Source: a virus (taxonomy: Duplodnaviria > Heunggongvirae > Uroviricota > Caudoviricetes). Taken from it: a DNA stretch of 36,611 nucleotides. The notes beneath the pieces were generated by a model that made no database searches, was not told where the DNA came from, and was given only the letters and a program-made list of their open reading frames with translations. The DNA lies in the IMG/VR virus record IMGVR_UViG_2537561930_000005; one strand, 5' to 3'. Positions 5,973-21,279 of the stretch are shown one piece after another. The first letter of the stretch is position 1, and each line of letters opens with the position of its first letter. Made by a program: the position numbers and the translations under genes.

Positions 5973-6164
5973 TTACTCCCCGTTCACCGAAAAATCACGA
6001 TAGAAACGTTTCCACATACGATAAGTCTGCGCGAGTTGTTCACCACGAAACATCGCCTTCCTGGCCTTCATGTTTTCCTTGTGAGACTTTCGATCTATGA
6101 ACCAAAACCATTGCTGGAACACACAAAGCAAGAGACACAAAGATAATATCCACTGATTACCCAT
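5973..6164 (-). CDS. Small membrane protein (63 aa, MGNQWILSLCLLLCVFQQWFWFI...)
   Basis: ATG at 6164 lies 2 nt upstream of the repA TAA stop (ATGGGTAA), suggesting translational coupling. One clear hydrophobic helix. Confidence 0.3.
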   Translation of the reverse strand: MGNQWILSLCLLLCVFQQWFWFIDRKSHKENMKARKAMFRGEQLAQTYRMWKRFYRDFSVNGE

Positions 6165-9100
6165 AGAAAGCGCCCTGCTCTTCGTAGCTGCATGGGCTAT
6201 TCCCGGTAATGTATTCACGTAACCGCCGCAGTTCATTGCTGGATAAGTGATCCATGAACTCTGTGAGGTACAGAGATGCAAACGTCATAGCTATGCTGGC
6301 TGATGACCATGATGACATAGTGGCCAGCTCCTCACCGGAAAGCGCACTCATCGCCCAGGACTCAGGTACAACCACTGGCAACACAGCCAAAGCCTCAGAA
6401 ATTACTGAATGAGGGGCGTTTTGAACCTGCTCGTTTGTGGATCGCGTTTTATCATCCATATATATATTGAGATCCAAATCGCGATCCATTTCGATGGCGG
6501 TCTTCTCGGCTTTACGCGTTTTCAGGGTTAGGCCATCTTTCTGACGCTGAGCAAGAATATCCAGCATAAATGCCGCTGATTCAGGCTCAACAAAACGCAA
6601 GGTTGGACGCTTATCGCCGTCTCTGCCGCGACGTTTACCTGTTTTAAGGCCAAGAGAGTCGCAAATGTTTTTAAACAACGCTTCCGGCACTTTAGGCTTC
6701 CCTTTTGGCGTCATAAAACCACCAATGTGCAGAACGTTATTCAACAGGTCACGGCGTTCGGCTGTCATGAGGTTATCTCGAGCAAATTTGAGACGCTCCT
6801 GAGTCGCCTCGCCGGTCATAGTCTCAGGGTTGATACCGCAGTCGATAAAGTACTGCCGGAGAGTTGCTGATTTAAGCGCATAGAAACCGCGCGCCCCGAC
6901 TTCAACAGTAGGAGTAGCTTTTACCTTGTGATCGATTATTCCAGGGAATTTAGTTTTAAAGACATCATCAGCCTGCTCGCGAGTCATCGCGGTCACTACA
7001 AAATATTGCCACTGTCCCGCCTGACGGTATGCGTAGGTAAAATTGATGGCTGCTTCTTCCCGGTCGTAACGACGAGCTGTTACCTCATCTAAAAGCATTG
7101 TTTCATAGCGGCGAACTTTGTCTCGAGCACCATCGAAATAGAATTTCAGCGTGCCTTCTTCAACCGGTAGTTTCAGTTCGTTTTCAATATCCCAGCGGAC
7201 AAGTTTTGCCTGTTCTTCAAGCGTCAGCGCGCGTTTTTTTAGCAGTTCTTCACGCTCTGATTCTTGTGGAGTTTCTGTATTGAGATGCAGATCCAGTGTC
7301 TGTTCCCACACAATATCCCGCGCTTCTTTACGCAGCTCTTTACCGATATCATTCGCAGCATAATCGGTGGCCAGCGGCGATACCTTATAACCGTCGCTGT
7401 GCATGATGCAGATCATGTTGCTGGCGTAGTCGTTACGCGCAGTCGCTTCAATAGCGGCTGCTTTAATTTTCATCCTGGTAAAGTCGGTATTGGCCACCCC
7501 CATTGATATACGGTCGCCATCGAAAACGACATCCGTCAGTTCACCGTTCATACCTGCGGTAGCAAGCAATGCCTGGGCGAATGCTCGTTCTATTTTTTGC
7601 GGGTCAGTTTCACGTTTTGCACGAGCTTTATCAAAGCCGATAATAAATTCTTTTGCTGTACGGTCGCGGCGTAGCATTTGCACTGCGTCGCTGGGTACAA
7701 CTTCACCACAGAACATGCCGAAATGACGGTCAAAATGTTTTTGCTCAATCGACACGCCGGATGAAATAGACGGGCTATAAATCAGGCCGTCGTATTTTTT
7801 GACCATCTTTTTCGGTTGATTGGTAAATGCTTCAACTTCTGGCTCTGGTTTGTTTTTCTGGTTTACACACAGAAATTTCTTACCAGGAAAATGCATTCTC
7901 AGGGTGGCTGTCACATCTTCTGCAAAGGTGGAGCTGTCGGTGGCCAACATGATTTTTTCGCCATCCGATACAGCTTTCACCACCTCGGTCATGATGCGAT
8001 CTTTTTCTGTATAAAAAACCCGGATTGGCTCACCTGTTTCGCGGTTGCGAACATCAACAGGTAATTCAATTACGTGGATCTGCAGCCATGCCGGTAAACC
8101 TAGTTCTTCACGGCGTTTCATAGCCAGTTCAGCCAGGTCAACCAGCAGATCATTCGCATCAGCATCCACCATGATTGGGTGTTGTTCTGTTCTGGCCAGC
8201 GCGTCAATTAGCGTATTGAATACAGCCACCGGGTTTTCCATAGCCCGACCGGAAAGAACGGCACGTAGCCCTTGTGTGGCCTCGTCAAAGCCAAAATAGT
8301 CGTGCTGGCGCATCAACGGTTGCCAGCAGTTTTTAACAATCGAGTTTATGCAGATGGTCAGTTTACTGGCGTATGGAGCCATTTCCTGATAGCCAGGATC
8401 CTGATAGTGCAGGATATCGGCTTTTACACCTTTTCCTTCTGTCATCATTTCCCACAGGCCGCCAATAAGGGAGACACGGTGAGCAACAGAGATACCACGT
8501 TCTGAGCTATGCATTAACGGTCGTAACAATCCAGTAGATTTGCCGGAACCCATACCAGCACGGACGATGACTATCCCCTGTAGTGATTGCACGTACTTCA
8601 GGACATCATCGGTCATTACCGAAGTTTCAAAACGCTTATAGGTGATATGTTGAGGGCGTTTATTGGGATCAGTTATGCGTTCGCTGAAAGAGCGCGGAGC
8701 CTGGGCAATACGGCACTTTTTATTCAGGCGACGGGCAATGTGGTCTTTTACCGTAGCGCGATAGATATTTTCCAGTCCCATTTCACGCAGAACGATGCAG
8801 AACATGTTAAATAAATCTGACGGACTGTTAGGAACCGGACAGGTTAGCATGCCAATATCCACCGCTCTCAGCAGCTCTTTGGCAAAAGTACGACGGTTAT
8901 CCCGCTTAATTGTCTTCAGGCGGTTGAGCGTCAGAGATAGCAAATCAGTACCAGTTTTCAGGCGGTTTGCTGTTGCAAATAGTTGACGTGCTGTTTCACG
9001 AAGTCCACGTAGTTTGTGCAGGTCGTTGAAGTCACTGCACTCCATTTGCGGATCGTCTTCAAAAGTTGGATAGACGCAGCGGACATCGTTGAATTTCGAT

Positions 9101-10152
9101 AAGATTTCATAGCCAGTCCGCAGGCCGGTATTCCCTTTTCCTTCTGTGGCAGATTTCCGGTCATTATCCAGTGCGCAGGTGATTTTTGCCGCCGGGTACA
9201 TGTTTACCAGTTGTTCCACAACATGAACCATGTTGTTAGCGGATACAGCGACAACCACAGCGTCAAAGCGTTTATCTTTTTTCGTGGCAAGCCAGATGGA
9301 TGCACCAGTAGCAAAACCTTCTGTAACAGCGATGTTTTGCGCCCCTTTCAGCTCACCGATAACAAAGCAGGCACCGACGAAATCGCCGCTGGTTACTGCG
9401 CTGGTCTGGTATTTTCCACCTTGTTTGTCGATTCGCTGCCAACCCACAATACGACCATCGTAACGACCGTCCAGGTGAGCCAGAGGGATAGCCATATACG
9501 TGGTTGGCCCCCTGCTCCATTTTGCGCTGTCGTGACTGGTCACGCGACGCACATCACACGAATTAAAAACGTCACGAATACCTTTTTTAATCGCATATGG
9601 CCATGAGCCGTCTTCTGCAGGAGCATGTTCCCACGCGCTGTGAAATGCCAGCCATCCCAGCAAACGTTCATGGTCAATTTGGTTGTTTTTCAGGTCATTA
9701 ATTCGTTTTTGTTCTTCACGGCGACGACGTGCTTCGGCCTGACGTTCTATTCTTGCCCGTTCTTCTTCCGGTTGTGCGACCACGGTCGCATTATTCCGTT
9801 GTTGCTCACGGCGATATTCAGAAAACAGGAAGGAGAAACCGCTCCATGAGCCAGCATCGCTGCCTTTATGGACGAAGTTAATGAACGGGTAATCAATCCC
9901 TTTGCTGTGTTCCAGCCGGGAGTAAATTTCTACGCGTCCTTTGAGGCTCTTCTCGAGAGCTTCTGGAGATGTTTTATTGTATGAAGAGTAACGCTCAACA
10001 CCCCCGCGAGGGTTGAGTTGGATGTTGTCGGAACAGGCAGGCCAGTTGATACCAGCCATCTGTGCCAGCTCGGTTAGTTCATCCCGTGCTGCTTCAATTA
10101 GCGAGAACGGATCGCTGCCAAAGCGATCCGCATAGAAATCGTTTAATGTCAT
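6157..10152 (-). CDS. repA: Replication protein RepA, primase-helicase fusion, 1331 aa
   Basis: Giant ORF with Walker A (GMGSGKST) helicase region and N-terminal primase-like region. Size and position (divergent from telN, adjacent to cB) match N15 repA, which I recall is ~1324 aa. Confidence 0.8.
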   Translation of the reverse strand: MTLNDFYADRFGSDPFSLIEAARDELTELAQMAGINWPACSDNIQLNPRGGVERYSSYNKTSPEALEKSLKGRVEIYSRLEHSKGIDYPFINFVHKGSDAGSWSGFSFLFSEYRREQQRNNATVVAQPEEERARIERQAEARRRREEQKRINDLKNNQIDHERLLGWLAFHSAWEHAPAEDGSWPYAIKKGIRDVFNSCDVRRVTSHDSAKWSRGPTTYMAIPLAHLDGRYDGRIVGWQRIDKQGGKYQTSAVTSGDFVGACFVIGELKGAQNIAVTEGFATGASIWLATKKDKRFDAVVVAVSANNMVHVVEQLVNMYPAAKITCALDNDRKSATEGKGNTGLRTGYEILSKFNDVRCVYPTFEDDPQMECSDFNDLHKLRGLRETARQLFATANRLKTGTDLLSLTLNRLKTIKRDNRRTFAKELLRAVDIGMLTCPVPNSPSDLFNMFCIVLREMGLENIYRATVKDHIARRLNKKCRIAQAPRSFSERITDPNKRPQHITYKRFETSVMTDDVLKYVQSLQGIVIVRAGMGSGKSTGLLRPLMHSSERGISVAHRVSLIGGLWEMMTEGKGVKADILHYQDPGYQEMAPYASKLTICINSIVKNCWQPLMRQHDYFGFDEATQGLRAVLSGRAMENPVAVFNTLIDALARTEQHPIMVDADANDLLVDLAELAMKRREELGLPAWLQIHVIELPVDVRNRETGEPIRVFYTEKDRIMTEVVKAVSDGEKIMLATDSSTFAEDVTATLRMHFPGKKFLCVNQKNKPEPEVEAFTNQPKKMVKKYDGLIYSPSISSGVSIEQKHFDRHFGMFCGEVVPSDAVQMLRRDRTAKEFIIGFDKARAKRETDPQKIERAFAQALLATAGMNGELTDVVFDGDRISMGVANTDFTRMKIKAAAIEATARNDYASNMICIMHSDGYKVSPLATDYAANDIGKELRKEARDIVWEQTLDLHLNTETPQESEREELLKKRALTLEEQAKLVRWDIENELKLPVEEGTLKFYFDGARDKVRRYETMLLDEVTARRYDREEAAINFTYAYRQAGQWQYFVVTAMTREQADDVFKTKFPGIIDHKVKATPTVEVGARGFYALKSATLRQYFIDCGINPETMTGEATQERLKFARDNLMTAERRDLLNNVLHIGGFMTPKGKPKVPEALFKNICDSLGLKTGKRRGRDGDKRPTLRFVEPESAAFMLDILAQRQKDGLTLKTRKAEKTAIEMDRDLDLNIYMDDKTRSTNEQVQNAPHSVISEALAVLPVVVPESWAMSALSGEELATMSSWSSASIAMTFASLYLTEFMDHLSSNELRRLREYITGNSPCSYEEQGAFYG
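6436..6490. other. Candidate internal replication origin element within the 3' part of repA
   Basis: Inverted repeat GGATCGCG (6439-6446) / CGCGATCC (6480-6487) flanking an AT-rich spacer containing TATATATAT; three GATC sites within ~50 bp. Confidence 0.3.
9775..9790. other. sopC-like partition (centromere) site copy 1, TGCGACCACGGTCGCA, inside repA
   Basis: 16-bp element with 7-bp inverted arms around AC. Exact 16-mer is repeated at 12218 and 16512. Differs at 2 positions from the F SopB-binding core TGGGACCACGGTCCCA as I recall it. Confidence 0.6.
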
Positions 10153-10397: not shown

Positions 10398-10994
10398 TCA
10401 TCTACCCTCAACCATGAATGATTTGATCGTTCCGACTATTTGGTGAACAAATTCAAGATCGCTTTTCCTGAAGATAGCGCGTTGTGAGTTTGTTCCATCC
10501 AGATAGTAATTTTCATCATCAAAACGGGCTAGGCGCTGGATAGTGATATTTCCTGCAGTATCACGAACCAGAACATCCTCGCCGGGGACCAGTTCCAGCG
10601 CAGAATCGACCAGGAGAAAATCGCCTGGCTGATAGTTTCCCTGCGTAAGATTGCTGATAGTTAACGCATACACAGTATTGCGCTGGCTGATGAATGGCAG
10701 GAATCGCTCAGTATTTGGAACCTGTCCCGGCTTCCACTCTTCATCAGGCCCACTTTCAGTTGTGCCAATAACAGGAATGCGATCAGGGTCATATTCTGTC
10801 CCATATAGCACCCAATGTACTGGCTTGCGTAAGCACTTAGCCAGGGCAATACCTATCTCCAGTGACGGCATTACGTCGCCACGTTCTAAGTTTTGGACGC
10901 CTGCTATAGAGATATCGACAGCCTCAGCAACTTCTCGCAACGTCAGCTTCATCTCTAAACGGCGTGCTTTCAGTCGTTCGCCTCGTGTTTTCAT
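10398..10994 (-). CDS. cB: Prophage repressor CB (CI-like, N-terminal HTH), 198 aa
   Basis: HTH_XRE segment LTLREVAEAVDISIAGVQNLERG, CI/LexA-like C-terminal fold, divergent from a cro-like gene with palindromic operators between them. Confidence 0.8.
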   Translation of the reverse strand: MKTRGERLKARRLEMKLTLREVAEAVDISIAGVQNLERGDVMPSLEIGIALAKCLRKPVHWVLYGTEYDPDRIPVIGTTESGPDEEWKPGQVPNTERFLPFISQRNTVYALTISNLTQGNYQPGDFLLVDSALELVPGEDVLVRDTAGNITIQRLARFDDENYYLDGTNSQRAIFRKSDLEFVHQIVGTIKSFMVEGR

Positions 10995-11058: not shown

Positions 11059-11085
11059 TTATTGTTTATTGTTTATAATAACAAC

Positions 11086-11307
11086 ATGAAACCAGAAGAA
11101 CTTATTCGCCACTTTGGCAGTGTTGAAAAAGCAGCGGCAGGGGTAGGTGTAACACCCGGAGCTGTTTACCAATGGTTAACCGCTGGAGAGATTCCTTCAT
11201 TGCGGCAAAGCGATATTGAAGTTCGTACTGCTTACAAGCTGAAGAGTGACTTTACAACTCGGCGGGTAAAGCAGTCGATTAAGGAGAGTCGTAAGCGTGG
11301 AGCTTGA
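11086..11307 (+). CDS. cro: Cro-like repressor (HTH), 73 aa
   Basis: HTH FGSVEKAAAGVGVTPGAVYQWL; divergent from cB. Possibly leaderless, as the -10 lies immediately upstream. Start codon uncertain. Confidence 0.6.
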   Translation: MKPEELIRHFGSVEKAAAGVGVTPGAVYQWLTAGEIPSLRQSDIEVRTAYKLKSDFTTRRVKQSIKESRKRGA

Positions 11308-12007
11308 GTATATACGCAGCTGCGTCTCTACGGCATTGGCTGATGTTCATTATCGCCAGCGTGGCATTCTGGAGGTCCAGCTTGAGCAGATGCGTCTCGG
11401 TAGATCAGGACGGTTTAACAATAAACCAGTCCGGTCAATCAGTGTGGGGGATGATAACTCATACGAAGTGTCCGTTCCCGCTGAGCCGGTTAGATTCCAC
11501 CAGGGGAAAACATTTAAACAATCATCAATGTTGCTCACTGATATTGATTTTCAGAGCGCCAGCTGGCGCAGGGCTATTTGTCAGTTGAATAACGAGGAAT
11601 CAGCCTGGCTTTATTATTGCTACGGATGCAAGCCTGACTACAACAATGATGTGATTGTTTGTCAGTGGTTATGGCTTGATTTTCTGGTTGCTCATTCGGG
11701 GGGCGGCTTTAAAAAAATGAAGGCCTCCACGAAAAAAGCCATGCGGAAATTGATTTATTACGCGGCACAGCAGGTTAAATCAGAACTTACGTGTGCTGAG
11801 GCAGTTGATGAGAGAGAACAGGACAGGCATCTGAGTTTTCTACTGAATATATCTATTGATAGCTGGAGACAAGATTATAAAGAACGCTGGCTTTTAATTA
11901 AGTCGCGATGTCTGAGCTTAAATCGAACCGCATTATTAAATGCGGCGGAGAAGCGCAGTGAAATCATCAAACGCCATCGGGCAGGAAGTGCCATTCTGCC
12001 TTTGTAA
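11297..12007 (+). CDS. Putative late-gene regulator (Q-like antiterminator?), 236 aa
   Basis: GTG start with RBS AAGGAGAG, overlapping the cro stop. Position matches N15 Q by recollection only; no diagnostic motif verified. Confidence 0.35.
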   Translation: MELEYIRSCVSTALADVHYRQRGILEVQLEQMRLGRSGRFNNKPVRSISVGDDNSYEVSVPAEPVRFHQGKTFKQSSMLLTDIDFQSASWRRAICQLNNEESAWLYYCYGCKPDYNNDVIVCQWLWLDFLVAHSGGGFKKMKASTKKAMRKLIYYAAQQVKSELTCAEAVDEREQDRHLSFLLNISIDSWRQDYKERWLLIKSRCLSLNRTALLNAAEKRSEIIKRHRAGSAILPL

Positions 12008-12260
12008 ACAAGTTATGTTCAGGAAACCGTCGAAGCCAGAATTAAGGTATTCGGGGGTAAGAAATGAATATGTCATCTGGTGTCCAACTTGCGGTTACAG
12101 GACACGACCCGATAGTAATAAGCAGTCTGTAATTGCCGATTGGTATTTATCAAATCAGCCAGGTAATAAGCATATAGAAAATCTTTGGATTAAGCGTTAT
12201 CTGGAAATTAGAGAGGGTGCGACCACGGTCGCACAAGAAAATGAAAATAACGCCATTTAA
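11940..12260 (+). CDS. Small zinc-ribbon protein (CxC...CPTCG), possibly Lar-like
   Basis: Cys pairs CLC and CPTCGY. The ATG at 11940 overlaps the Q-like gene; alternative start at 12015. Confidence 0.3.
   Translation: MRRRSAVKSSNAIGQEVPFCLCKQVMFRKPSKPELRYSGVRNEYVIWCPTCGYRTRPDSNKQSVIADWYLSNQPGNKHIENLWIKRYLEIREGATTVAQENENNAI
12218..12233. other. sopC-like partition site copy 2 (TGCGACCACGGTCGCA)
   Basis: Exact repeat of the 16-mer at 9775; lies within the 3' end of the zinc-ribbon ORF. Confidence 0.6.
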
Positions 12261-12444
12261 ACAGGGGCCGATGACGCATGATGAGGCAGAGCGTCTTTCA
12301 GATACTTATCGGCGGCGTGGTAAGAAAGTTCTGGTTGTTCGTTCTGATTTTTTAGGTGATGGATATTGCGTTTATGTTCATTTACCTGAATCAGAAAGAG
12401 CACCAAAACCATCCAGAACATATCAACAGAAGTTTTGGGCATAG
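12241..12444 (+). CDS. Hypothetical small protein (start uncertain: 12241 or 12271)
   Basis: ORF only; no recognised domain. Confidence 0.3.
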   Translation: MKITPFKQGPMTHDEAERLSDTYRRRGKKVLVVRSDFLGDGYCVYVHLPESERAPKPSRTYQQKFWA

Positions 12445-12467
12445 ATAAACATTGAGGAGAATTATTC

Positions 12468-13067
12468 GTGACTAATCAGATAATTTACGACAGGAAACGG
12501 TCTGATGTAATGATTGACCTTGAAACAATGGGTACTAATACATGTGCTCCAATTGTTTCTATCGGGGCAGTGTTTTTTTCTCCTGAAAGTGAGGAATTAG
12601 GTGCCACTTTTTATGTACCAGTGAATCTCAGAAGCTCGATGTTAAATGGTGGTGTTGCCGATGGTGATACCATTTTATGGTGGTTGCGGCAGAGCAAGGA
12701 AGCCAGAGCCGCAATTTGTACTAATGATGCCCTTGATATTAATGATGCACTTTTTGAATTATCACACTTTATTACTTGCCATGCTTGTAATTTAAAAACA
12801 TTGAAAGTATGGGGAAATGGAGCAACGTTCGATAATGTAATTTTACGCGGCGCTTATGAGCGCGTTGGCTTATCCTGTCCGTGGGAATATTTTAATGATC
12901 AGGATGTTCGAACAATCGTTAATCTTGGTCAGTTTATTGGTTTTAATCCTAAAAAAGATATGCCATTTGATGGCGAACGACACAATGCCCTGGCTGATGC
13001 TATTCATCAGGCTAAATATGTATCTGCAATTTTCTCCCGTCTTGTAAAAGGGCAAGGAGAATCGTAA
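12468..13067 (+). CDS. DnaQ-like 3'-5' exonuclease (DEDDh), 199 aa
   Basis: GTG start with RBS GAGGAG. Motifs MIDLETMG (Exo I D-x-E) and HNALADA (Exo III H-x4-D). Confidence 0.65.
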   Translation: MTNQIIYDRKRSDVMIDLETMGTNTCAPIVSIGAVFFSPESEELGATFYVPVNLRSSMLNGGVADGDTILWWLRQSKEARAAICTNDALDINDALFELSHFITCHACNLKTLKVWGNGATFDNVILRGAYERVGLSCPWEYFNDQDVRTIVNLGQFIGFNPKKDMPFDGERHNALADAIHQAKYVSAIFSRLVKGQGES

Positions 13068-13486
13068 TGGCAAAGGCTTTTACACCAGAACAGAGGGAAG
13101 AACTGAATAAACAAATTGTGGAACTCGTGCGCCTGAATGGACGAGGAACGGTTAGGCAACTTGCGGATGAAACTGGTATTAGCCGGTGTGCTGTTAGTCG
13201 TTTATCAAGAGAGCTTGCTGCCAGTGGTGATTTGTATATCTCTGGCTCCGGGATATTTCTGTCTGCACAAGCACGCAAGGACTGGCAAAACGCCCGTAAA
13301 AAACTATCAAGAGTAAAGCCGAAGAAATCGGTAGTGGTTGATCCAGACCTTATCTGGTCATTACCTGACGGAGAAATACGTCGCTACGACAGGCGCCTGA
13401 ACATGATTTGTCACGATTGTCGGAAGAGCGAAGTTATGCAGCGTGTGTTGGCGTTTTATCAGGGAAATTTTCAGGAGGTGGCGTAG
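13067..13486 (+). CDS. Winged-HTH DNA-binding protein, 139 aa
   Basis: Segment TVRQLADETGISRCAVSRLSREL resembles an HTH. ATG overlaps the upstream stop (TAATG). Confidence 0.45.
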   Translation: MAKAFTPEQREELNKQIVELVRLNGRGTVRQLADETGISRCAVSRLSRELAASGDLYISGSGIFLSAQARKDWQNARKKLSRVKPKKSVVVDPDLIWSLPDGEIRRYDRRLNMICHDCRKSEVMQRVLAFYQGNFQEVA

Positions 13487-13776
13487 TGAATATCGACACC
13501 ACGATAACGATCGATATGGCCCTAAATACCGGTCTGGCACTTCTCGGTTGGTTTTACATCATGTTCAGTGCGGGGAAGTGGGCGGCCTCTGTTTTTCTAA
13601 AGCAGTGGGGAAAGCGCCGCAAACAGGAAAAACGCCAGAAAGCGTTGGAGGCGTTCTATGACGCATTTGAACTTGGCCGCATTGAACCAGGTACAACAGC
13701 CAGGATAGCGACAAAAGGCGACCTGATGATAGTGATGTTCCGACAGGAGAGAGCAGAGAAAGGGGGATCAGCATGA
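13486..13776 (+). CDS. Small membrane protein (~96 aa)
   Basis: GTG at 13486 with RBS AGGAGG 7 nt upstream. Hydrophobic helix LALLGWFYIMF followed by a basic tail. Confidence 0.4.
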   Translation: MNIDTTITIDMALNTGLALLGWFYIMFSAGKWAASVFLKQWGKRRKQEKRQKALEAFYDAFELGRIEPGTTARIATKGDLMIVMFRQERAEKGGSA

Positions 13777-14432
13777 AATTTTCCAAATTTTCTGAGTTGG
13801 TGAATCGTATTTTGTCCAACAACCACAGCCATCGTCGCGATATGGATGTAACAATCGTTGTTCATTCGCCTGGCAGCATTGGTTCAACACCTTCAGTTGA
13901 GGTTCAGTCAATTCACGCTGGTTTTGATTGGGATTCCGGGAAAGTGCTTATTTTCCCAACACAGCCACTGACCACGCTAACACCAGAACAGATTACTGAT
14001 ATTACTGATAGTGTGCGCAAAGGTCAGTCTTGGCACGCATATCAGGAATATAAAAAGCATAAAGAGCAGTTGGAAAAATTGTCGATTGAGTTGGAATCAG
14101 CCAAAAATCACATAGCAGAACTGGAAGCCAAACCTGTAAGCCAAACTTACAAGTTAACTTTTGAGCAATGGCTGGAACAGCAGCATGACAAAATTGATGT
14201 TGATTGTGGATGTGTAAGTACAGAAATGCTTATGCACTGGATAAGGGTCGCGTATGAGGCTGGCAACTCTCCGGTAACTCCGGATGGTCATATTCAGTTT
14301 TCTGTTTCACTTCCTGCAGCATGTGGTGGAGATAAATATTTTATTGATGGTGTATTTCAACCTTTGAGATATGAGCGTGACTGTGAAAAAGCGGTTGTGG
14401 CCGCTGGCGGTGTAGTTAATTGGGTTAAGTAA
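13773..14432 (+). CDS. Hypothetical protein with central coiled coil, 219 aa
   Basis: ATG overlaps the upstream stop (ATGA) with RBS AGGGGGA. No recognised domain. Confidence 0.5.
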   Translation: MKFSKFSELVNRILSNNHSHRRDMDVTIVVHSPGSIGSTPSVEVQSIHAGFDWDSGKVLIFPTQPLTTLTPEQITDITDSVRKGQSWHAYQEYKKHKEQLEKLSIELESAKNHIAELEAKPVSQTYKLTFEQWLEQQHDKIDVDCGCVSTEMLMHWIRVAYEAGNSPVTPDGHIQFSVSLPAACGGDKYFIDGVFQPLRYERDCEKAVVAAGGVVNWVK

Positions 14433-14447
14433 TTTTCAGGAGGATTT

Positions 14448-14774
14448 ATGGCGCTGACAGCTGCAGAACGGCAAAGGAGACGCAGGGAACGGTTGAAGAA
14501 GGAAGGCACATCAAGACGGGACTGGATTCTGGAACCTGACGAGTTACGTATGTTGGGGGAAATTTGTGTATTGCGTAGACCAGGGCGAGTTCCATATTCA
14601 GAGAACGAAGTCATCGGACTGCTGATCAGGAAAAACTATAAGGAGTTGCAGAAACAGCTATCTACTACTTGTCCGCGATGTGGTCAAAGAATGCCTGTTT
14701 CAGAATGCATTTTTGATGGTGAAGGCTCATGCCACCTTACAACCACGAGGCTGAAACTTGCGCTCAAAGTGTGA
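14448..14774 (+). CDS. Hypothetical basic protein with C-terminal zinc ribbon (CPRCG...C..C), 108 aa
   Basis: RBS AGGAGG; Arg-rich N-terminus; Cys cluster. Confidence 0.45.
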   Translation: MALTAAERQRRRRERLKKEGTSRRDWILEPDELRMLGEICVLRRPGRVPYSENEVIGLLIRKNYKELQKQLSTTCPRCGQRMPVSECIFDGEGSCHLTTTRLKLALKV

Positions 14775-14792
14775 CTGGTCACGGAGGGGTAA

Positions 14793-14948
14793 ATGGACAA
14801 AAAGGCATTGCTTTTTGAAATGATACGAAAACGGAGCGAAAAGAGCTTTTCTGATGGTGGTGATGGGCTTTTGGAAGTGGTTGGGCGAGGCGCAGGAAGG
14901 GAACATAAGTATCGGACTACAAAGATATTTAACCAGTTAATCCATTGA
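14793..14948 (+). CDS. Hypothetical small protein (51 aa)
   Basis: Hand-translated ORF not in the supplied track. Strong RBS GGAGGGG 5 nt upstream of the ATG. Confidence 0.3.
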   Translation: MDKKALLFEMIRKRSEKSFSDGGDGLLEVVGRGAGREHKYRTTKIFNQLIH

Positions 14949-14965: not shown

Positions 14966-15016
14966 TGAGTTTTACCCTGTAATTTTATACAGTATCAAAT
15001 AACCTTTTTTAATTAA

Positions 15017-15235
15017 ATGGTATTAGATTCAATGACTGAAGCACCTGTATCAACTCTTGAAGAACTCGGATCAAACCTAAAAGACATCGACGCCGTTTTG
15101 GATCTGGTTAGCGTTGCTCTGGCTTCTCCAGAAGCCAGCTTGCATCTTGGCGAGATTTCACGACTTGTTAGTATGTCGCGGGAGATAGCTCAGAATTGCC
15201 AACAAGTTATTGCTGTTGAGAGTTTACATCATTGA
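15017..15235 (+). CDS. Hypothetical small acidic protein (72 aa)
   Basis: ORF downstream of the operator-like site; start uncertain. Confidence 0.35.
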   Translation: MVLDSMTEAPVSTLEELGSNLKDIDAVLDLVSVALASPEASLHLGEISRLVSMSREIAQNCQQVIAVESLHH

Positions 15236-15278
15236 TACACACCCCGCCCTTCCGGACGGGGTAGCGAAAAGGGTCTAA

Positions 15279-15566
15279 TCAATAGACGGCATTAATATTA
15301 ATCGTTGCACCGCATGCTTGGGCATATTTTGATAAAGTTTTCATGCTTGCCCCTAAAGGATTGCTTTCCAGGCGGCTGATAGCTGACGGGCGCAATCCCA
15401 TTCGTTCAGCCAGAGCTGACTTCGTTAAACCTGCTCTTTCCCTCATTTCGTATAACATTTCGACCATCTCCAGCTCTTTATCGGCCTCTTCATATCCTTT
15501 GATGGCTTCTGGAGTGTTGAGAAGTTTTTCTTTTACTTCGTTAAACGGGATGCCTTTCGCTTTCAT
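15279..15566 (-). CDS. HTH_XRE antitoxin (HigA-like), 95 aa
   Basis: HTH LTKSALAERMGLRPSAISRLE. ATG overlaps the toxin stop (TGATG); RBS AAGGAG lies within the toxin 3' end. Confidence 0.7.
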   Translation of the reverse strand: MKAKGIPFNEVKEKLLNTPEAIKGYEEADKELEMVEMLYEMRERAGLTKSALAERMGLRPSAISRLESNPLGASMKTLSKYAQACGATININAVY

Positions 15567-15877
15567 CAGTTCATCTCCTTCAGGCGAGTTCTGGCGATTT
15601 CGATAGCCTTCACCGGTGTTTTCTGTGTCTTTTTTACAAATGCATGCAATAGATAAATTTCGTTACCAGTCGCGTAGGCGTACAGCGTTCTTGCGATGTT
15701 TTTATCCCCTACTCGTAGTTCAAAAAGCCCTCCACCTATTACACGGCTATGGGGCATCTTCAGTTTGTTGCCTTCTTTCTCCAGTCGCTCAATTAATCTG
15801 GTCATGCGACCTCGCAAATCATCTGGTAGTTCAAGCAGTTCATCCAGTGCTGCAGGGTGGGTTATCACGTTAAACAT
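15566..15877 (-). CDS. RelE/ParE-superfamily toxin, HigB / Gp49-like, 103 aa
   Basis: Size, toxin-first order and sequence character match the phage Gp49-like (HigB-type) killer family, which was named after N15 gp49. Confidence 0.65.
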   Translation of the reverse strand: MFNVITHPAALDELLELPDDLRGRMTRLIERLEKEGNKLKMPHSRVIGGGLFELRVGDKNIARTLYAYATGNEIYLLHAFVKKTQKTPVKAIEIARTRLKEMN

Positions 15878-16505: not shown

Positions 16506-16511
16506 AAACTG

Positions 16512-16527
16512 TGCGACCACGGTCGCA
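16512..16527. other. sopC-like partition site copy 3 (TGCGACCACGGTCGCA)
   Basis: Exact 16-mer, intergenic, 7 nt after the stop of the upstream gene. Confidence 0.6.
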
Positions 16528-16614
16528 CAGCACAAAAACGAAAAAGCTTGGCAAAATGACGGTTTTTAGTTATTGTTTTGTTAAGTTGGGTTTTTTGTAC
16601 CCAACAGCTAACAA

Positions 16615-16637
16615 GCCGCCTTTATGGCGGTTTTTTT
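16615..16637 (+). terminator. Small rho-independent terminator (GCCGCC-TTTAT-GGCGG + T7)
   Basis: Direct read; position upstream of the late genes suggests a tR'-type terminator read through by antitermination. Confidence 0.45.
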
Positions 16638-20759: not shown

Positions 20760-21279
20760 ATGGAAGTCAACAAAAAGCAGCTGGCTGACATTTTCGGTGC
20801 GAGTATCCGTACCATTCAGAACTGGCAGGAACAGGGAATGCCCGTTCTGCGAGGCGGTGGCAAGGGTAATGAGGTGCTTTATGACTCTGCCGCCGTTATA
20901 AGATGGTATGCCGAAAGGGATGCTGAAATTGAGAACGAAAAGCTGCGCCGGGAAGTTGAAGAACTGCGGCAGGCCAGCGAGACAGATCTCCAGCCAGGGA
21001 CTATTGAGTACGAACGCCATCGACTTACGCGTGCGCAGGCCGACGCACAGGAACTGAAGAATGCCAGAGACTCCGCTGAAGTGGTGGAAACCGCATTCTG
21101 TACTTTCGTGTTGTCGCGGATCGCAGGTGAAATTGCCAGTATTCTCGACGGGCTCCCCCTGTCGGTGCAGCGGCGTTTTCCGGAACTGGAAAACCGACAT
21201 GTTGATTTCCTGAAACGGGATATCATCAAAGCCATGAACAAAGCAGCCGCGCTGGATGAACTGATACCGGGGTTGCTGA

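Follow-up and report, generated by a model that had tools for sequence, protein, structure and literature searches.

Two sets of described systems are among the closest to the locus analyzed here. In phage lambda, the nin (ren, ninB-ninI) and exo-xis (ea22) regions comprise accessory genes that are dispensable, mosaic, and expressed early; the ren gene confers resistance to Rex exclusion. N15 (genes 40-47 and 'orf QD1'), phiKO2, and PY54 have a common frame consisting of cro, Q, a small gene that we call A, the centromere site IR2, a second small gene that we call B, an exonuclease, cargo genes, gp46, gp47, an SOS box, and antC, after which comes a HigB/HigA-like pair. The four centromere sites of N15, IR1-IR4, are listed in Table 4 of PMC7205306, and N15 antC is under the control of LexA (PMC3121763, PMC11652158). 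Here, we analyzed the corresponding block of genes at positions 11940-14948 of the IMG/VR virus record IMGVR_UViG_2537561930_000005. The whole stretch of DNA, 36,611 nucleotides (nt) long and hereafter called the window, belongs to the N15-like (Ravinvirus) linear phage-plasmids and shares the above-mentioned frame.

We consider it probable that the block is the ordinary and already catalogued mosaic accessory region that follows Q in N15-like phage-plasmids, i.e., the functional counterpart of the nin and exo-xis regions of lambda. Some of its families are found in lambda, since one of its genes, D, falls in the same PHROG family as Ren (phrog_142) and another, F, in that of Ea22 (phrog_368). 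Its position is different: the block lies downstream of Q, and neither in the P-Q interval nor to the left of exo.

A constant frame with a variable interior

The first 25 kb of the window are 96-97% identical, over 84-87% of their length, to the Escherichia phages PhiR46_1 and YDC107_1, with conservation of gene order. Between Q and a regulatory site discussed below, the block has eight genes in the plus strand, A to H, packed with short overlaps or gaps:

11940-12260, plus strand: gene A, 106 amino acids (aa), with an alternative GTG start at 11958 that has a better ribosome-binding site (RBS)
12241-12444, plus strand: gene B, 67 aa
12468-13067, plus strand: gene C, 199 aa
13067-13486, plus strand: gene D, 139 aa
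13486-13776, plus strand: gene E, 96 aa, with a GTG start after a GGAGG RBS
13773-14432, plus strand: gene F, 219 aa
14448-14774, plus strand: gene G, 108 aa
14793-14948, plus strand: gene H, 51 aa

The overlaps amount to 68 nt between Q and A, 20 nt between A and B, 1 nt between C and D and between D and E, and 4 nt between E and F, while the gaps are of 23, 15, and 18 nt. All eight genes matched PHROG families (1e-17 to 2e-80). When compared with the N15-type orthologues, A, B, and G show purifying selection, with pN/pS values (nonsynonymous/synonymous polymorphism) of 0.11/0.59, 0.31/0.77, and 0.13/0.84, respectively. These matches, together with pN values far below pS, indicate that A-H are more than chance open reading frames (ORFs). 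The ORFs of the block in the minus strand or in alternative frames had no family match, and a search of the block against Rfam gave no match.

A previous sequence-only reading of this DNA had correctly delimited a tightly packed plus-strand block between Q and a regulatory site, and rightly placed in this early-strand accessory region a DEDDh exonuclease, a winged helix-turn-helix (HTH) protein, Zn-ribbon proteins, and a small hydrophobic protein. It had counted seven genes where we find eight, and had seen a recognizable fold only in the exonuclease, whereas D and E belong to the Pfam families DUF977 and DUF4752, and A, F, G, and H can be assigned to families of PHROG. Its description of the locus as uncharacterized has to be abandoned, since near-identical annotated copies are public and a studied centromere site, IR2, lies within the block.

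To compare the block across relatives, we used 49 IMG/VR loci fetched with gp46 as anchor. The frame of cro, Q, A, B, exonuclease, cargo, gp46, gp47, LexA box, and antC is constant in the 49 loci. The DNA separating the end of B from gp46 ranges in length from 1.1 to 3.9 kb and is occupied by at least 30 different architectures; D, E, and F are in this variable part. The comparison with N15 genes 41-47, which the sequence-only reading had suggested, returned the same frame with a different content: the exonuclease is another one, D, E, and F stand in place of gp42-45.1, and gp47 is internally deleted. The whole block was found in 28 plasmids of PLSDB and in 17 of the 5426 complete genomes of Escherichia coli, and pieces of it are present in 2641 of these genomes, mostly in the chromosome.

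The block has two layers. The first is a backbone found in all the N15-like phages sampled, made of A, IR2, B, a slot for a DEDDh exonuclease, gp46 (G), and gp47 (of which H would be a deletion remnant). The second is a slot for swap-in cargo, which in the window holds D (a Ren-like winged-HTH protein), E (a DUF4752 protein predicted to be anchored in the membrane), and F (an Ea22/DUF551-like protein).

Cargo genes

Sequence similarities indicate that D, E, and F are swappable cargo exchanged with lambdoid and P1-like prophages. D was found only in the lineage of the window type and was for this reason classed as cargo. It is a winged-HTH protein of DUF977 (PF06163 at 1.1e-29, 103.6 bits for a cut-off of 22.1) that belongs to phrog_142 at 2.7e-42, a family labelled 'Ren-like exclusion' in which lambda Ren is also found (1.6e-41). 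Lambda Ren had no match to PF06163, and the link between the two proteins is at the level of the PHROG and of a C-terminal motif, where BLASTP aligned 20 residues directly (E of 9e-6).

E matches DUF4752 (PF15944 at 3.7e-40, 136.3 bits for a cut-off of 27) and phrog_667. It has a single hydrophobic segment in the N-terminus, at about residues 11-29, with a maximal Kyte-Doolittle value of 1.39 at residue 11. We rejected a start of E at TTG 13408, since GTG 13486 is favored by its RBS, by where the alignments to PHROG and Pfam begin, and by how the relatives are annotated. Nucleotide identity to P1-like phages is 92-97% for E and the beginning of F.

F is a modular protein related to Ead/Ea22 and DUF551, with a central stretch that resembles a coiled coil. 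It matches phrog_6026 through residues 1-112 (3.6e-54) and phrog_368 (6.9e-42), the latter being the only family that it has in common with lambda Ea22. Among relatives, F is domain-shuffled and duplicated; a related variant in one locus (L036) has a weak DUF551-like C-terminus, and the middle part of F is around 86% identical in nucleotides to a gene that Stx phages carry close to xis/int. A Pfam search at E-values up to 0.1 revealed no match of F to PF13935 (Ead_Ea22), for which lambda Ea22 scores 101 bits, and the BLASTP comparison of F with lambda Ea22 was not significant (E of 0.26). Sequence searches of PDB with D, F, and G returned nothing significant.

A hypervariable slot between conserved anchors, with so many architectures, is also reminiscent of anti-defence islands, and the block lies in the early strand straight after the immunity region. 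One might regard it as a counter-defence or anti-restriction island, expressed early and ahead of host immunity; the sequence-only reading had deemed the genes compatible with a counter-defence or host-takeover module. In such an island, D would protect against Rex-type abortive infection in the manner of Ren, with which it shares a PHROG; A would alleviate Type I restriction, as Lar or Ral do; C would destroy nucleic acids that a host defence makes as products or signals; and E and F would neutralize other systems. The PHROG labels of A and D fit this view. Yet, the searches of Pfam, NCBIfam, and PHROGs matched no protein of the block to a characterized anti-defence family. The searches of NCBIfam and PADLOC gave only hits below the thresholds, those of PADLOC being marginal and generic (DEDDh at 1.3e-3 and CasR at 2.9e-3), and the PADLOC models describe defence, not anti-defence, proteins. 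Furthermore, A, B, and the exonuclease slot are conserved rather than variable.

The exonuclease slot

The best-supported biochemical statement on the block concerns C, which by its sequence is a DEDDh 3'-5' exonuclease with a complete active site, of the type of Rv2179c and T4 DexA. The protein matches PF16473 at 3e-68 (229.5 bits for a cut-off of 27), with residues 13-188 aligned on positions 2-176 of the 177 of the profile, and phrog_255 at 2e-80. The catalytic residues D17, E19, D122, H172, and D177 are all present (D-x-E, D, and H-x4-D). In PDB, C matches 8kel ('Exodeoxyribonuclease') at 6e-7; this alignment has low identity and covers only residues 13-126, but includes the D-x-E motif. 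We take this structure to be that of T4 DexA. With it and with Rv2179c of Mycobacterium tuberculosis, C shares the full-length PF16473 domain and the five catalytic residues.

The slot after B is occupied by a PF16473 protein in the window and in 17 of the loci, and by an RNase_T protein, the type of N15 gp41, in 30. No pairwise similarity was detected between the two types of slot proteins. Hence, the slot is, on these family assignments, always filled by a DEDDh exonuclease, which may come from either of two unrelated families. We considered C and gp41 as possible orthologues and rejected this idea, given the absence of pairwise similarity and the different Pfam families. Where the window has C (199 aa, PF16473), N15 has gp41 (304 aa; 5161-6075 of L003, the RefSeq record of N15), a fusion of an RNase_T exonuclease with a true zinc-ribbon domain of the Lar family (47.5 bits). 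The loci similar to phiKO2 match only residues 1-198 of gp41, which is the exonuclease part.

The fusion of a true Lar domain with the exonuclease in gp41 is in line with a counter-defence island. The retention of an exonuclease through non-orthologous replacement points in another direction: A, IR2, B, and the exonuclease could constitute, with Q and SopB, a module of telomere phages for the activation of late genes or for the replication or processing of the linear genome with its hairpin ends. Against such a dedicated use, relatives of C (PF16473) were found in 647 phage records, from both temperate and apparently virulent phages.

Genes A and B

A is a conserved gene linked to Q, not variable cargo, in N15-like, PY54, and VP882-type phages, several of which are telomere phages. 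Its family is small, since it was found in only 37 phage records, including N15, phiKO2, PY54, and the Vibrio phages VP882 and VHML. In every phage record annotating both genes, A adjoins Q; this is its place in N15, phiKO2, PY54, and the VP882-type Vibrio phages. In N15, the orthologue is an unannotated ORF (L003 4654-4974) with 79% aa identity and a dN/dS (nonsynonymous to synonymous substitution rate ratio) of about 0.1. The ORF of N15 B is at L003 4955-5158. Both A and B are absent from the RefSeq annotation of N15, where the early entry U45242 has 'orf QD1' at the A/B position; plasmid records annotated by PGAP (L060) omit A and give B as a protein of 57 aa.

The rarity of the family, its presence in the telomere phages N15, phiKO2, PY54, VP882, and VHML, and its position beside Q are in favor of the telomere-phage module, as is the fact that all the sampled N15-like loci with this region have IR2 inside A. 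However, this linkage may simply reflect the joint inheritance of Q and A as one module. Furthermore, there is no IR palindrome in the Salmonella loci L057-L059 nor in a VP882 stretch (L063), and VP882 keeps the Q-A pair. In our view, a module of A, IR2, B, and the exonuclease working with Q and SopB is very unlikely.

In the Salmonella N15-like elements of L057-L059, which are more distant phage-plasmids, Q, B, an RdgC-like gene, and an exonuclease of the RNase_T type are kept, and an ORF of 101 aa takes the position of A. The GCGACC-NN-GGTCGC palindrome is missing from them, and the expected place of antC has a DinI-like gene.

The protein encoded by A is basic and has a pattern of Zn-ribbon, as read from the sequence, with four cysteines (Cys20, 22, 48, and 51) and Trp68, the first knuckle being CxC instead of CxxC. 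It belongs to phrog_6795 (2.7e-45), labelled 'Lar-like restriction alleviation'. Like the Lar protein of the Rac prophage, now named RalR (PF14354, TIGR03655), it is a small protein with a putative Zn-ribbon pattern of two cysteines, a spacer, CxxC, and Trp, and its similarity to the Lar profiles is weak. Nevertheless, it scores below both curated Lar cut-offs, with 21.2 bits for the 28.6 of Pfam PF14354 and 19.1 for the 39.6 of TIGR03655, when RalR has 53.6 bits and the C-terminus of N15 gp41 has 47.5. It also differs from RalR in its PHROG (that of RalR is phrog_599), in the CxC knuckle, in having around 40 additional residues in the C-terminus, and in being linked to Q rather than to recET. 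Even the Lar label is ambiguous, because RalR itself was reported to be a DNase toxin (PMC4041452).

B is a small basic protein of phrog_1212, 52% identical in aa to its N15 counterpart, and had no match in Pfam or NCBIfam. Its AlphaFold2 model (pLDDT, the predicted confidence score, of 78) shows a small beta-alpha-beta-beta fold, whose structural neighbors were uninformative. Genes of the B family are found in lambdoid nin regions: in mEp237 between NinB and an HNH endonuclease/RusA, and in PPompW before ydfU and rusA. An RdgC-like gene is found within the block in Salmonella N15-like elements and in PY54. The backbone thus looks like nin-type genes of DNA metabolism. The sequence-only reading had foreseen that its proposal would fall if all the proteins belonged to mundane phage families, such as NinB/NinG-like recombination functions; the neighbors of B (NinB, HNH, and RusA) and the RdgC-like genes in the block bring us close to that situation. 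The location of the B family among recombination genes is unfavorable to a counter-defence role, and its occurrence in ordinary lambdoid phages is unfavorable to a module specific to telomere phages.

Of the proposed counter-defence module, the hypervariable cargo slot and the Lar-like and Ren-like labels are retained. On the other side, A fails the Lar cut-offs, belongs to another PHROG, and is conserved, and PADLOC gave nothing significant. Overall, we regard a counter-defence island as an unlikely explanation of the block. The ordinary accessory region seems preferable, and the roles of A, B, D, E, and F in it are inferred from families and context. The backbone proteins would act on the ends of nucleic acids, with C degrading them in the 3'-5' direction and A and B being possible DNA-binding or partner proteins, whereas D, E, and F would modulate the lysis-lysogeny decision or the exclusion by resident prophages.

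A centromere site within gene A

The analysis of the window revealed three copies of the palindrome GTGCGACCACGGTCGCAC, one of them with one mismatch, when 0.15 would be expected:

9774-9791, inside repA: IR1, with one mismatch; it matches N15 IR1
12217-12234, unstranded: IR2, an 18-bp palindrome GTGCGACC-AC-GGTCGCAC at codons 93-99 of A, ending 6 nt before the ATG of B
16511-16528: IR3, followed after around 20 nt by a late-promoter-like site (16548-16576) and then by a strong terminator (16613-16633)

The palindrome inside A and its flanks match the IR2 oligonucleotide of N15 (Table 4 of PMC7205306), and the equivalent spot in the phiKO2 record is annotated 'putative plasmid partitioning site'. 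An exact match to GTGCGACC-NN-GGTCGCAC at the orthologous position was present in all the N15-like loci sampled that hold the region. The arms are invariant across lineages with saturated synonymous sites, and only the two central bases vary: the dinucleotide is AC here and TC in N15, while arms and flanks are alike. Hence, by its sequence and position, 12217-12234 is the N15-type dispersed centromere site IR2 and is predicted to bind SopB. The sequence-only reading had overlooked this site. A studied centromere site is thus situated within a coding sequence and not in an intergenic region. The layout beside IR3, with a promoter-like site and a terminator, is the same in the N15 record before gene 52.

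IR2 resembles the sopC site of plasmid F in having an inverted repeat of 7-8 bp around a center of two bases (TGGGACC-AC-GGTCCCA in F). It is unlike sopC because the IR sites are dispersed single copies instead of a tandem array, their arms have other sequences, and IR2 is within a coding sequence. L007 (at 11106 and 11326) and, at similar positions, around ten other loci have two more IR-type palindromes, with a central GT, approximately 3 kb downstream of IR3; there are no copies of these in the window.

Two other readings of the palindrome were discarded. It might be an RNA hairpin bringing a Shine-Dalgarno sequence near the ATG of B, but the stem is weak (z of -1.5). The invariance of the arms without covariation, and the two further copies in the window, also argue against an RNA hairpin and for a protein-binding site in DNA. 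Alternatively, B could start at GTG 12217, where 'VRPRSH' is conserved; this peptide is the translation of IR2, and a Met is found at the position of ATG 12241 in every lineage.

In the proposed model, IR2 would serve plasmid partition and, with IR3 upstream of the late promoter, would help the Q-dependent late transcription, by analogy with N15. For the latter, Ravin, Rech, and Lane reportedly showed in 2008 that the Q-dependent late expression is promoted by SopAB together with IR2, located downstream of Q, and IR3, which precedes the late promoter, and that N15 mutants in IR2 and IR3 are delayed in lysis. This delay would be an argument for the telomere-phage module.

Genes G and H and the downstream border

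G is the orthologue of N15 gp46, with 78% aa identity over the full length, and precedes gp47 and antC in 49 of the 49 loci. It has a basic N-terminus, a helical core, and four conserved cysteines in the C-terminus (75, 78, 87, and 95). It falls in phrog_536 at 3.3e-32, with the label 'transcriptional regulator', and had no match in Pfam or PDB. By our own reading, the sequence has a pattern that could be ribbon-helix-helix-like. Its relatives form 27 clusters, and those with a name are all from Enterobacteriaceae.

H derives from N15 gp47 by the deletion of 29 internal residues, and has an altered C-terminus; phrog_13995 matches only its residues 1-26. The deleted segment is HTH-like by our reading. 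The same short allele occurs in three other contigs (L007, L008, and L036), and thus persists in nature.

Downstream of H, the border of the block is set by two elements:

14977-14992: LexA (SOS) box, core CTGTAATTTTATACAG, CTGT-N8-ACAG, upstream of the antC homologue
15017-15235, plus strand: antC homologue, 72 aa, outside the block

The 72-aa protein has 57% aa identity to an N15 ORF (L003 8605-8832) and matches phrog_6301 at 3.2e-36, as well as the 'anti-repressor' phrog_10889 at 1.4e-6. N15 has the same arrangement of LexA box and ORF, where RefSeq lacks annotation of the ORF. On these similarities, we take the ORF to be antC, a probable LexA-controlled antirepressor. The sequence-only reading had placed an operator-like site at 14945; it is most likely this LexA box, which is unlike the operator of a phage repressor.

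A scan of the block for plus-strand promoters gave one weak match, inside C, but such a simple scan could miss a promoter. The lack of a convincing promoter or terminator between cro and antC, together with the coupled start and stop codons, suggests co-transcription of the block with cro and Q. A-H would then be transcribed with these genes from the early promoter repressed by CB, once AntC, made after the cleavage of LexA, inactivates CB.

A number of points weigh against the ordinary accessory region as we describe it. No credible plus-strand intrinsic terminator was found from cro to antC, but a Rho-dependent one could have escaped the simple scan. The biochemical functions of A, B, and D-H are predicted at most. 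The fold of B is generic, and the AlphaFold2 model of G (pLDDT of 54, with an alignment of 18 sequences) was unusable. B does not adjoin the exonuclease in PY54, which weakens the idea of a partnership between the two. A specific complex is further disfavored by the swap of the exonuclease family while B was kept.

Flanking regions

Ahead of the block, a protelomerase is followed by these genes:

6157-10152, minus strand: RepA
10398-10994, minus strand: CB repressor
11062-11307: Cro
11297-12007: Q, matching Phage_antiter_Q of Pfam at 2.7e-84

The window begins at telN, and the genes for SopA and SopB are outside it; PhiR46_1, which is 97% identical, has ParA/ParB beside telR. On the 3' side of the block, the window has a small ORF, a HigB/HigA-like pair, homologues of gp50 and gp51, a methylase, lysis genes, and structural genes. 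The pair resembles a toxin-antitoxin system (15279-15877, minus strand), with a Gp49/HigB-like protein (PF05973) and an HTH_3 antitoxin, orthologues of N15 genes 48 and 49. It is convergent with antC, with a GC-rich hairpin between them at around 15240-15262. At about position 21000, the G+C content jumps: it is around 0.44 across the early and lysis genes and around 0.58 in the structural ones, and is high thereafter to the end of the window. In the record of YDC107_1 (CP025712, L066), the protelomerase and its neighbors are duplicated and inverted at 34650-38833, an arrangement that suggests either telomeres joined head to head or an artefact of the assembly.

Implications

The value of this analysis is mainly that of a correction and of a map: the block is best seen as a standard mosaic accessory region, and no new system is proposed. 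The useful by-products are that A and B are missing from the RefSeq annotation of N15, that IR2 is intragenic, that the exonuclease slot is always filled, and that A, in the phage records having it, is linked to Q. What retains some interest is the conserved pairing of A with Q and an exonuclease slot that is never empty. We give little credence to the view that A, B, and the 3'-5' exonuclease form a module dedicated to telomere phages, be it for late activation, for hairpin processing, or for the destruction of nucleic acids of host defences. If it were true, the swap between non-orthologous exonucleases would mean that selection acts to keep the enzymatic activity as such. In any case, the by-products listed above offer concrete targets for knock-outs in the study of the biology of phage-plasmids, and the D-E-F slot is suited for screens of genes for exclusion or anti-defence.

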